Shown piece after piece: positions 3,848 through 63,253 of a DNA stretch of 64,000 bases (position 1 is its first letter; the number at the start of each line of letters is the position of its first letter). The DNA is taken from NCBI RefSeq assembly GCF_003018255.1, contig NZ_CP027440.1; one strand, 5' to 3'. The notes beneath the pieces were generated by a model that saw nothing but the letters and a program-made list of their open reading frames with translations, was not told the DNA's origin and ran no database searches. Position numbers and translations under genes: made by a program. The stretch comes from Escherichia coli (GTDB lineage: Bacteria; Pseudomonadota; Gammaproteobacteria; Enterobacterales; Enterobacteriaceae).

Positions 3848-3946
3848 GCCTGATGCGCTATGCTTATCAGGCCTACGCAGTACCTGCAATATATTGAATC
3901 TGCAGGACTTTGTAGGCCGGATAAGGCGTTAACGCCGCATCAGGCA
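3848..3946. repeat. BIME: two oppositely oriented REP elements between convergent ybiT and ybiU
   Basis: GCCTGATGCGCTATGCTTATCAGGCCTAC and GTAGGCCGGATAAGGCGTTAACGCCGCATCAGGCA match the E. coli REP consensus in inverted orientation. Confidence 0.8.
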
Positions 3947-22913: not shown

Positions 22914-22941
22914 TTAGTACCCCTTAATCAAGGGGTACTAA
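22914..22941. repeat. 28-bp perfect stem-loop at the dgcI-distal edge of the two-gene cassette
   Basis: TTAGTACCCCTT-aatc-AAGGGGTACTAA: 12-bp perfect arms, 4-nt loop, no U-tract on either strand. Confidence 0.7.
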
Positions 22942-35149: not shown

Positions 35150-35168
35150 TAGATAAATTTTAGACAAC

Positions 35169-35247
35169 AAAAAACCCACCAACCTTGAACCGAAATGGCG
35201 GGGTTGATGGGCTCCACAAAATGGGGACATCAAAGAAAAGCAGTGGC
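35169..35247 (-). ncRNA. rybB: RybB small RNA (sigma-E-dependent, Hfq-binding)
   Basis: Minus-strand read GCCACTGCTTTTCTTTGATGTCCCCATTTTGTGGAGCCCATCAACCCCGCCATTTCGGTTCAAGGTTGGTGGGTTTTTT matches RybB, including the terminator hairpin and U-tail. Confidence 0.9.
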
Positions 35248-47710: not shown

Positions 47711-47744
47711 AAAAAAAGACGGACAACTTAGTGAGTTGTCCGTC
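47711..47744 (-). terminator. Rho-independent terminator of the artPIQM operon
   Basis: Stem GACGGACAAC / GTTGTCCGTC with 7-nt loop, followed on the minus strand by a run of seven T. Confidence 0.8.
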
Positions 47745-47769
47745 TTCATTATAAGAATTTATGCACTAT

Positions 47770-60912: not shown

Positions 60913-61812
60913 TTATGCAGAGAAAAAGGCGATGAGAATCGGCACTAACAGACTAAGAATAAAACCGTGAACAATCGCCGCCGGGACCATATCCAGCCCG
61001 CCTGTACGTTGAAGAACGGGCAGGGTGAAATCCATCGACGTCGCACCGCATAAGCCCAGTGCAGTAGAGCGGCTACGGCGAATCAGCCCAGGGATTAACA
61101 TAATAGCAATCAGCTCACGGGCCAGATCATTAAAAAACGCCGCGCTCCCGATTACCGGACCAAAAGATTCGGTCAATAAAATACCGGAAAGAGAATACCA
61201 GCCGAAACCGGAGGCCATTGCCAGCGCGGTATTGATGGGAAGATCAAGAATAAAGGCGTTAATTAAACCACCAATTAATGAACTGGCAACCACCACCACG
61301 GCGACAATCATTCCCCGGCGATTAAGGACAATCTGCTTTAAGGTCATGCCATTATTGCGCAACTGAATACCGACGAGGAAAAGTAGCAGAATTAAGGTGT
61401 ATTCACTGGCTTCGGTCGCGTGTTGTAAGAAAGCCAGTCCACTCAGACCAATGGCAAAACCAATCACTACTACGCCGCACAGTTTTAGCGACTCCAGCGC
61501 CATCGCAATACGCGACGGGAGTTTTTCTTGATGATGGTGGTTGCGCCATGGCAGGCCGCGCTCCAGCCACATCAGGGCGGCAATATTACACAGTAAAATA
61601 ACGGTAATACTGACGGCAGAATAATGCAGAATTGCCAACAAGTTACTGGCGAGGTTATCGAGAAACGCCAGACTGATACCCATAAAAAAGAGAATAAGGT
61701 AAACCATCCAACTTAATAGCTGATTAATAACTCTTAATGCAGCTTTTTGGCGAAGCGGAATGAGGTAACCCACAATCAGGGGAACCAGAATGATTAACAG
61801 CCCAGAAAACAT
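60913..61812 (-). CDS. ybjE: Inner membrane exporter (LysO-type)
   Basis: About 299-aa multi-TM ORF (start MFSGLLIILVPLIVGYL). Confidence 0.8.
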   Translation of the reverse strand: MFSGLLIILVPLIVGYLIPLRQKAALRVINQLLSWMVYLILFFMGISLAFLDNLASNLLAILHYSAVSITVILLCNIAALMWLERGLPWRNHHHQEKLPSRIAMALESLKLCGVVVIGFAIGLSGLAFLQHATEASEYTLILLLFLVGIQLRNNGMTLKQIVLNRRGMIVAVVVVASSLIGGLINAFILDLPINTALAMASGFGWYSLSGILLTESFGPVIGSAAFFNDLARELIAIMLIPGLIRRSRSTALGLCGATSMDFTLPVLQRTGGLDMVPAAIVHGFILSLLVPILIAFFSA

Positions 61813-62132
61813 GAAAAACCAGTCCTTGCAAAGAAGATTCGAAATGCGCGATGACACACTACTGAAAGCGGAAGGACGAGTAAAGTTGCAATTAAAAGGA
61901 AATGTTATGCATCAGAGGGGGATTTTTAATTCTATATGAGTGTTTAGCATTGTTGCGCTCCTTTCATGTGCAATGCCATATAAAGCCACTGGCGCAGGGA
62001 GCGGCCAGTTGCCGCCGCTCCCTGCCCCCCCGGCCTTCGGGGAACGCCTCGGCGATTTTAACGCCACCAACACCCGTGCGGTTTGTAACGTCGAAGATAA
62101 AACCACCAGGGCAGACAACATGCCAATGCTAA

Positions 62133-62828
62133 TTAATCGCGTTTTTCCAGTAGAGTCCGGTAAATCAGACCACCGATAATACCGCCGACAATTGGCACCA
62201 CCCAGAAGAACCACAGTTGTTCTAATGCCCAGCCGCCCTGGAAGATAGCAACCGCAGTACTGCGCGCCGGGTTAACGGAAGTGTTAGTCACCGGAATACT
62301 GATTAAGTGAATCAGGGTTAAGGCCAGACCAATGGCAATTGGCGCAAAACCAGCAGGAGCGAATTTGTCAGTTGCGCCGTGGATCACCAACAGGAAACCT
62401 GCACTCAATACCAGTTCAACTACCAGCGCGGAAAGCATGGAATAACCGCCTGGTGAATGCTCGCCATAACCGTTAGAAGCAAAACCGCTGGCTGCCGCGT
62501 CAAAACCCGTTTTACCACTGGCAATTAAATACAGCAGCGCCGCCGCAACAATACCGCCGACAACCTGGGCAATTACGTAGCCAACGACTTCTTTTGCCGG
62601 GAAACGTCCGCCAGCCCATAAACCAATAGTGACCGCCGGGTTAAAATGACCACCAGAAATATGACCAACAGCAAAGGCCATTGTCAGAACGGTCAGACCG
62701 AACGCCAACGCCACGCCGGCAAAACCAATGCCTAATTCCGGGAAGCCTGCGGCCAGTACGGCACTACCACAGCCGCCAAAAACAAGCCAGAAAGTACCAA
62801 AACATTCAGCTGCTAATTTTCTGAACAT
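62133..62828 (-). CDS. aqpZ: Aquaporin Z
   Basis: [19 protein letters not shown] with two NPA motifs (HFNPAVT, NPARS); 231 aa. Confidence 0.9.
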
Positions 62829-63253
62829 ATCCACCTCAATTAAAAATTGACCCTGTGAAAAATATGGTCGTTTTATAGGGTCGTCGTAAAAAAGTGACGA
62901 CGGAAATAATGCGCGGCTATTTTAAAAACGAAGGCAAGTCATTCACCAGATAAATAAATCCAGTAAATTTGATTTAAGGCAACAGCGGGTTGCCCCATAT
63001 AGTCATTTGTCTGATTGACAGTGTAGTGCAAGCGAAAGATTTAATCCTTTAGGCGTAATAAAAAATAATTTATCATGCTAATTATTTGATTTTGTTGTTT
63101 TTGCAGACTTATCAGCAAGAGGGAGTATAACGCGATTATTCGCTCATTTTTCAGACATTTGCCATGCTTAAATGTGATGTCATCACGTATTAGCATGGCC
63201 TTTCCCGTTATACTGCCAGCGTAAAGGATAAGTCACATATTTCTGGAGGGGAT

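Follow-up and report, generated by a model that had tools for sequence, protein, structure and literature searches.

We have analyzed the intergenic region between lysO (ybjE) and aqpZ in a stretch of 64,000 nucleotides of Escherichia coli DNA, hereafter called the window. The gene order found here (hcp, lysO, aqpZ) is that of K-12, and a GC-rich element with a strong hairpin lies between the last two genes (Table 1). A promoter and terminator scan of positions 61500-63000 gave no site within the lysO-aqpZ intergenic region. No T/U tract was found within 2 nt of the 12-bp stem of the hairpin, the sequence UUUAUAU starting 9 nt past it. The initial annotation had noted that the structure is unusually GC-rich for a terminator and has no clear U-tract, and it is indeed not a canonical terminator. 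Three open reading frames overlapping the element (76, 79 and 100 aa) were not accepted as genes, because the indel lengths are not divisible by three, the element is found in both orientations and the peptides are not conserved. A small ORF located after a Shine-Dalgarno-like motif is probably not a gene, since its peptide is not conserved between copies (other copies have MMNQHITTS*, MRD* or MMKLNKRF... at that position). In three strains the RefSeq numbering of locus tags leaves out one number from lysO to aqpZ, with no feature listed there (RS04790 to RS04800 in the K-12-like strain 6A, RS04830 to RS04840 in O157 and RS12075 to RS12065 in D8), and a gene call over the repeat that was later withdrawn may account for the gap.

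Sequence inspection and a repeat finder identified a perfect hairpin with two arms of 12 bp, GCAGGGAGCGGC (61994-62005) and its exact complement GCCGCTCCCTGC (62014-62025). The arms had been correctly described before, but the loop is of 8 nt (CAGTTGCC, 62006-62013) and not of 5, GCC having been omitted. A run of seven C (62025-62031) overlaps the end of the second arm. The second hairpin reported after this run is also present, with a stem of 5 bp instead of 4; in the consensus structure of the full-length TRIP1 copies (see below) its bases have other partners, within helices 4-6. Perfect 12-bp inverted repeats with a loop of 3-10 nt are expected 0.06 times on average (100 first-order Markov simulations), and the window has three distinct ones (four overlapping matches). 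The hairpin at 61994-62025 exceeds this chance expectation. When compared to shuffled sequence, the fold of the 211-nt region had a z of -4.0 on the minus strand and -3.3 on the plus strand. The hairpin alone folds at -35.0 kcal/mol on the minus strand and -30.4 kcal/mol on the plus strand, and the predicted fold of the whole 155-nt element reaches -70.1 kcal/mol.

The other two perfect 12-bp hairpins of the window are found at 22914-22941 and 47716-47746. The latter (AAAAAAAGACGGACAACT..AGTTGTCCGTCTT) has an A-run on one side and a T-rich sequence on the other, resembling a bidirectional terminator, and a REP-like sequence is located ~25 nt downstream of it. Searching the whole window with Rfam at the gathering threshold retrieved only two matches, both outside the element. 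One is the gene of the RybB sRNA (35166-35244, minus strand, 104.1 bits). The other is ES036 (CssrF), at 3869-3911 on the minus strand, with 41.6 bits over a threshold of 37.6; it may be repeat-derived, and at one spot in L023 (L numbers designate the stretches retrieved from other genomes) an ES036 match overlaps one to naRNA4.

Table 1. Features of the lysO-aqpZ region, in window coordinates.
Feature	Position	Strand	Basis or remark
lysO (ybjE) coding sequence, downstream neighbor	60913-61812	-	ORF list; annotation of the identical strain D8
Small ORF MLNTHIELKIPL* after a Shine-Dalgarno-like motif, probably not a gene	61912-61950	-	Peptide differs between copies
Very probable TRIP1a / RRS-lysO remnant, 155 nt, 60% GC	61941-62095	- (sense, G-rich)	BLAST; alignments
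Conserved 3' terminal motif AGGAGCGCAAC, Shine-Dalgarno-like, partly paired in helix 12	61952-61962	-	
Hairpin; corresponds to helix 11 (18 pairs) of full-length TRIP1, here collapsed	61994-62025		Helix 11 with 4 double-change pairs
11-nt deletion junction, where the imperfect tandem repeat CGCCCCCTGCG/CGCTCCCTGCG lost one unit	62003-62004		
G-rich tract AGGCCGGGGGGGCAGGGAGCGGCGG (GGGGGGGCAGGGAGCGGCGG), counterpart of the RRS G4 motif GGGGGTGCAGGGGGCGGCGG with 2 substitutions	62012-62036	-	
Junction of the 125-nt internal deletion (the C-run); both AYGGAY core hairpins removed	62025-62033		Alignments
Short 5-bp hairpin CCCCG-GCCTT-CGGGG	62028-62042		
Conserved 5' arm, sense strand GTTGGTGGCGTTAAAATCGCCGAGGCGT	62044-62071	-	Near-invariant in all 25 aligned copies
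Flank from the aqpZ stop codon to the element, specific to the reversed allele, without the K-12-type aqpZ terminator	62096-62132	-	Weak fold
aqpZ coding sequence, upstream neighbor	62133-62828	-	ORF list; annotation of the identical strain D8

There is a known family of repeats at this very place. The TRIP1 repeats go back to Rudd (1999, Res Microbiol 150:653) and were surveyed by Li et al. (2024, PMC10888264), who give five loci: TRIP1a at aqpZ-ybjE, TRIP1b at putP, which is devoid of the internal 125 bp, TRIP1c at yohI(dusC)-yohG, and TRIP1d and TRIP1e at further loci. Both orientations were recorded at the a and c loci, with TRIP1a reversed in 1255 genomes (PMC10888264). Under the name RRS (replication risk sequences), GC-rich near-perfect repeats of 222 bp have been described 650 kb either side of dif (Pham 2023, PMC10287960; 2024, PMC11194060). 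According to the RRS authors, who give the G-quadruplex (G4) motif GGGGGTGCAGGGGGCGGCGG, RRS and TRIP1 are the same (PMC11194060). The motif is on the lagging-strand template and provokes post-replication gaps, and at least one RRS is reported to be conditionally essential (PMC10287960, PMC11194060).

Our analysis indicates that the structure in the window is very probably a decayed allele of TRIP1a, for which RRS-lysO is another name. It belongs to a known family and is not a new element. The locus is the same, between aqpZ and ybjE, and the 5' arm, the hairpin and the 3' module are homologous. BLAST against K-12 TRIP1a gave 91.8% identity over positions 8-68 and 74.8% over 176-282, and the window copy aligns end to end with 24 other TRIP1 copies. 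TRIP1 repeats have 62-65% GC, 146-273 bp and a very stable predicted fold; the window copy is similar in GC content and fold, and its size is like that of TRIP1b. As read on the G-rich strand, the 5' arm of the window hairpin is the counterpart of the RRS G4 motif, with two substitutions and as a putative G4, and the G4Hunter-style sequence score over 25 nt is 1.72 for the window tract versus 1.84 in K-12. The 3' motif AGGAGCGCAAC is kept from E. coli to Kluyvera. Full-length TRIP1 copies, of ~290 nt, are made up of the 5' arm, a core of 125 nt whose two hairpins have AYGGAY loops, a G-rich hairpin of 18 pairs and a 3' module with AGGAGCGCAAC. It is this 18-pair hairpin that holds the published G4 motif. 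What is seen at this place in the window is the collapsed hairpin plus a deletion scar, the C-run.

The alignments show that the window allele misses 125 nt and 11 nt of the full-length element, 136 nt together. Only ~86 of the 222 RRS bases remain, far from a near-perfect 222-bp repeat. Slippage between the short direct repeats at the junctions removed both segments. The 125-nt deletion sits between imperfect CCCCGG repeats, and APEC O18 keeps the unmodified junction CTGCACCCCCGG/CCTTC (the slash marks the junction). In K-12 TRIP1b, located downstream of putP, the core was lost in the same register via a different crossover (CTGCTGTCCCGG). Since the two crossovers differ, the 125-nt loss occurred at least twice, independently. 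TRIP1b resembles the window copy also in size (146 versus 155 nt) and in the location of its G-rich strand, which shares both chromosome strand and replichore with that of the window copy, but it is found at another locus and retains the 11-nt unit. The window copy differs from TRIP1a in having both the TRIP1b-like deletion and the 11-nt one, a combination that we did not find in the literature.

O157 and FCI1 have the element in the window orientation and full length, with the extra 125 nt and 11 nt, and the O157 match stops at query base 191, i.e. at window position 62003. In K-12 and CFT073 the ~290-nt core is inverted, and after it comes a canonical terminator of aqpZ, which is missing from the window allele. 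The other truncated alleles (APEC O18, A33 and TUM14697) have the hairpin with one A.C mismatch on the plus strand, which is a G.U pair on the sense strand. The sub-lineage of the window gained a C-to-T change that made the stem perfect, a hint of continued selection on the stem instead of plain decay.

The fold of the family was derived with RNAalifold. We used 22 full-length copies, found in E. coli, E. albertii, E. whittamii, Kluyvera, Pseudocitrobacter and one further enterobacterium. The consensus has 74 pairs in 12 helices. Compensatory double changes affected 14 of the 74 pairs, versus 4.2 +/- 1.3 in shuffles, none of the 500 reaching the observed number, and when the partners were slid by 1-3 columns only 1-3 pairs with double changes were left. 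Besides, 98.5% of the cells were paired, versus 40-48% with the partners slid in the same way. Helix 11, to which the window hairpin belongs, has four covarying pairs (for example GCGGC/GCCGC changing to GAGGA/TCCTC). On the G-rich strand there were 62 G.U cells versus 4 A.C cells, therefore the constraint acts on this strand when folded, be it in the form of RNA or of single-stranded DNA.

The G-rich strand is the minus strand of the window, and is inverted relative to K-12. The GC skew was +0.029 on the plus strand and the gene order is that of K-12. Therefore, the plus strand serves as template of the lagging strand, and the G-rich strand as that of the leading strand, not of the lagging one where the RRS motif has been described. 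The lysO-aqpZ spacer (320 nt) was then used as query against 5426 complete E. coli genomes, and the region proved to be polymorphic. The 100 nt proximal to lysO are near-universal, and only 927 genomes cover at least 80% of the spacer. The K-12 TRIP1a copy matches 17,787 places in 5425 of the 5426 genomes, with a median of 3 and a maximum of 8 per genome, and none of these places carries an annotated feature. Further TRIP1 loci were yohP-dusC, with both orientations present, and the region downstream of putP.

The alleles were counted with flank-specific probes, and the overlaps were obtained as places minus genomes and are hence approximate. The K-12-type (forward) flank at lysO was found in 4080 genomes (~75%) and the reversed copy in ~1300 (~24%), while the reversed and truncated version found in the window was present in 384. 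A 56-nt probe over the truncated junction matched only ~50 genomes, an under-detection that is probably due to the C-run being masked as low-complexity sequence and to a shortage of seed words, and it was replaced by one of 103 nt. At dusC, ~2000 genomes (~37%) have the reversed copy and ~3415 the K-12-type one. Approximately 910 genomes (~17%) are reversed at both lysO and dusC, and in ~390 a reversed lysO copy appears together with a K-12-type dusC. O157:H7 Sakai is reversed at both. Strain D8, with a locus 100% identical to the window, carries a dusC copy that is reversed and full length, and in strain Z0117EC0036 megablast detected a single full-length copy, the reversed one at dusC. Nine of ten sampled genomes with the truncated allele had the reversed dusC flank. 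The conserved positioning published for RRS does not extend to their orientation.

A recent flip in place is not supported as the origin of the two orientations: the flanks outside the element have no significant similarity between the orientation alleles at one locus (p = 0.48, 0.78, 0.24). K-12 TRIP1a and the reversed dusC allele, on the other hand, share flanks beyond the ends of the element (p < 0.003). Taken with the presence of copies at different loci across genera, the shared flanks would point to past mobility or copy-and-replace events. The flanks common to the K-12-type TRIP1a and the reversed dusC read AGATATT..TTGCG..ATTACAAAC at the 5' side and AAGATGATGAA at the 3' side (L001 1601-1660 and 1926-1940 versus L008 1949-2025 and 2280-2290).

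The 125-nt core that is absent from the window matches the Rfam family TwoAYGGAY (RF01731; Weinberg 2010, PMC2864571). In full-length TRIP1 the core has two adjacent hairpins with AUGGAU/AGGGAU loops inside an outer stem, as in TwoAYGGAY; TRIP1 differs by an extra 3' G-rich hairpin absent from the Rfam model, and the window copy by the loss of the whole core. The K-12 TRIP1a core scored 30.6 bits (E = 0.09), being the sole sub-threshold Rfam match at its locus. The homologues from Kluyvera, 85% identical to E. coli TRIP1a end to end, reached 54.2 and 44.6 bits over the whole model (the threshold is 43), and E. whittamii 38.3 bits. Bona fide TwoAYGGAY RNAs in Lachnospiraceae MAGs had 72-79 bits. 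The E. coli copies stay below the threshold because their second loop is AGGGAU or AGGAC and not AYGGAY. Scanning with an 18-mer of the first core hairpin uncovered TRIP1 homologues at non-orthologous intergenic sites in other genera. The loci were retrieved with this 18-mer from species-representative genomes and are consequently enriched for the TwoAYGGAY motif, and a single hairpin cannot reach 43 bits.

We suggest, tentatively and as something short of probable, that TRIP1/RRS could be the enterobacterial branch of the TwoAYGGAY family, with a conserved, strand-specific fold, its GGA hairpin loops being of the CsrA type, that may act as RNA or folded sense-strand DNA and not only as a G4. 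TwoAYGGAY has been proposed to be a CsrA sponge (PMC4333381). Rfam, TwoAYGGAY and CsrA are not cited in the TRIP1 paper (PMC10888264) nor in the main RRS paper (PMC11194060). The TwoAYGGAY literature that we searched does not mention TRIP1 or RRS as a subject, and we found no literature on an sRNA at aqpZ-lysO or yohP-dusC, or on CsrA targets there. The Rfam link raises the question of whether full-length TRIP1/RRS is transcribed and bound by CsrA. If the relationship is true, the window allele is a natural knockout of the AYGGAY core. In that case the free orientation polymorphism, with ~17% of genomes reversed at both loci, would indicate that a lagging-strand G4 is not what selection maintains.

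Several other interpretations of the window copy have been considered. The initial annotation had proposed a comparison with the REP/RIP repeats. Its guess was right in spirit, as this is one of a dispersed family of GC-rich palindromic intergenic repeats, the family being TRIP1/RRS and not REP/RIP. REP/BIME elements have these same characteristics and are often located at gene 3' ends, but there is no sequence similarity, and TRIP1 greatly exceeds them in length and occurs in many fewer copies (median 3). The REP consensus GCCKGATGCGRCG...CTTATCMGGCCTAC found no match in the window at up to 3 mismatches. An Rfam search of the region with E values up to 10 gave only noise and no REP-related family. 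With a sequence that aligns end to end with TRIP1, a REP/BIME-type element can practically be dismissed. The other proposal was a role in the stability of the aqpZ RNA, and one could likewise think of a dedicated aqpZ terminator. The element is indeed on the aqpZ strand, starting 37 nt past the stop codon, with a stem of -35 kcal/mol and no other terminator-like site between aqpZ and lysO. However, the U tract of an intrinsic terminator is absent in spite of the GC-rich stem. Moreover, a dedicated role in aqpZ RNA stability is unlikely because in ~75% of the genomes (~4080 of 5426) the element runs antisense to aqpZ, a gene that in those genomes ends in a hairpin-plus-T7 terminator of its own. 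Being found also at unrelated loci and in other genera, and antisense in most genomes, it did not evolve for aqpZ, and we consider improbable that the hairpin is a dedicated terminator or 3'-end stabilizer of this gene. A secondary effect on the aqpZ 3' end is possible, the element being co-directional with aqpZ in the window allele. Because the reversed allele has no aqpZ terminator of its own, transcripts of the aqpZ 3' region probably include the element, and its stem of -35 kcal/mol may incidentally pause transcription or block exonucleases there.

A different matter is whether the remnant keeps an activity of its family. A still-working replication risk sequence would be a DNA structure that stalls lagging-strand synthesis and makes post-replication gaps. 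The window copy lies at the lysO RRS locus and retains both the G-rich tract (G4Hunter 1.72), with the hairpin arm corresponding to the G4 motif, and the strong hairpin. Besides, an inverted RRS can replace the natural ones in viability tests (PMC11194060), and an inverted RRS, or the strand complementary to the G4 strand, still forms gaps in vitro at a reduced frequency (preprint 10.64898/2026.06.16.732529). Against this, the window copy is inverted, with its G-rich strand on the leading-strand template, has two substitutions in the G4 motif and keeps ~86 of 222 bp, and an RRS inverted by engineering produced neither a RecA nor an SSB peak in vivo (PMC11194060). Given the strand and the remaining length, the window copy probably creates no lagging-strand gaps, or only weakly. 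K-12 TRIP1b is not among the two reported RRS peaks, which points the same way. We think it unlikely that this is a working RRS; by analogy with the published cases, it is probably a weakened or inactive remnant. Even less credible is a functional TwoAYGGAY-type small RNA gene at this position. Full-length relatives match the Rfam model and the fold favors the sense strand, but both AYGGAY hairpins fall inside the 125-nt deletion, the window copy gave no match to the family at the gathering threshold of 43 bits, and there is no promoter-like site upstream on the minus strand within the intergenic region. If full-length TRIP1 works as an RNA of this type, the window copy would be null for that function.

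As a decayed TRIP1a, the window allele represents a natural experiment for the RRS model, in which at least one 222-bp RRS is conditionally essential and the gaps need the G4 strand on the lagging-strand template. The strains that carry it have a truncated and reversed lysO copy, and in the two strains checked directly the dusC copy was reversed as well. The interest of the locus lies in how an element reported as conditionally essential varies naturally in orientation and length, together with the link to TwoAYGGAY.

We have also observed relatives outside the five published loci (PMC10888264). Flanked by asmA and a yegH-like gene, a diverged TRIP1-like copy, with 85% identity over ~185 nt and its own 3' end (GTGAACGGAAC), is present in E. 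coli SCPM-O-B-8794, E. whittamii and two Escherichia sp. (L024 8735-9025, L050 8457-8748, L089 829-1119 and L090 307-597). In Kluyvera, Pseudocitrobacter and one further enterobacterium, a second, different TwoAYGGAY core (37-49 bits) is found ~70-250 nt away from the TRIP1-like element, in divergent orientation (L072 3745-4167, L058 9360-9775, L023 1858-2281 and L047 1594-2112). The copA locus (L022 1-697) has two divergent copies that were scored differently from the other divergent pairs.

The scan with the 18-mer hairpin GCCCACATGGATGTGGGC recovered 81 stretches in total, chance expectation being roughly 9 by a rough estimate that was not computed. The 18-mer appears 11 times in Edaphovirga cremea (L059-L069), with only one copy passing the TwoAYGGAY threshold (47.7 bits), and four times in one Thiotrichaceae MAG (L038-L041), where the only TwoAYGGAY match (57.4 bits, L041 4441-4561) is located ~180 nt from the 18-mer and not over it. 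The sites in these two organisms look like multi-copy relatives in other lineages. The same 18-mer was present across several species of Shewanella (L014, L020, L037, L046, L087, L088) and of Methylobacterium (L016, L048, L074, L080), and in Rhizobium, Agrobacterium and relatives (L031, L055-L057, L073, L076).
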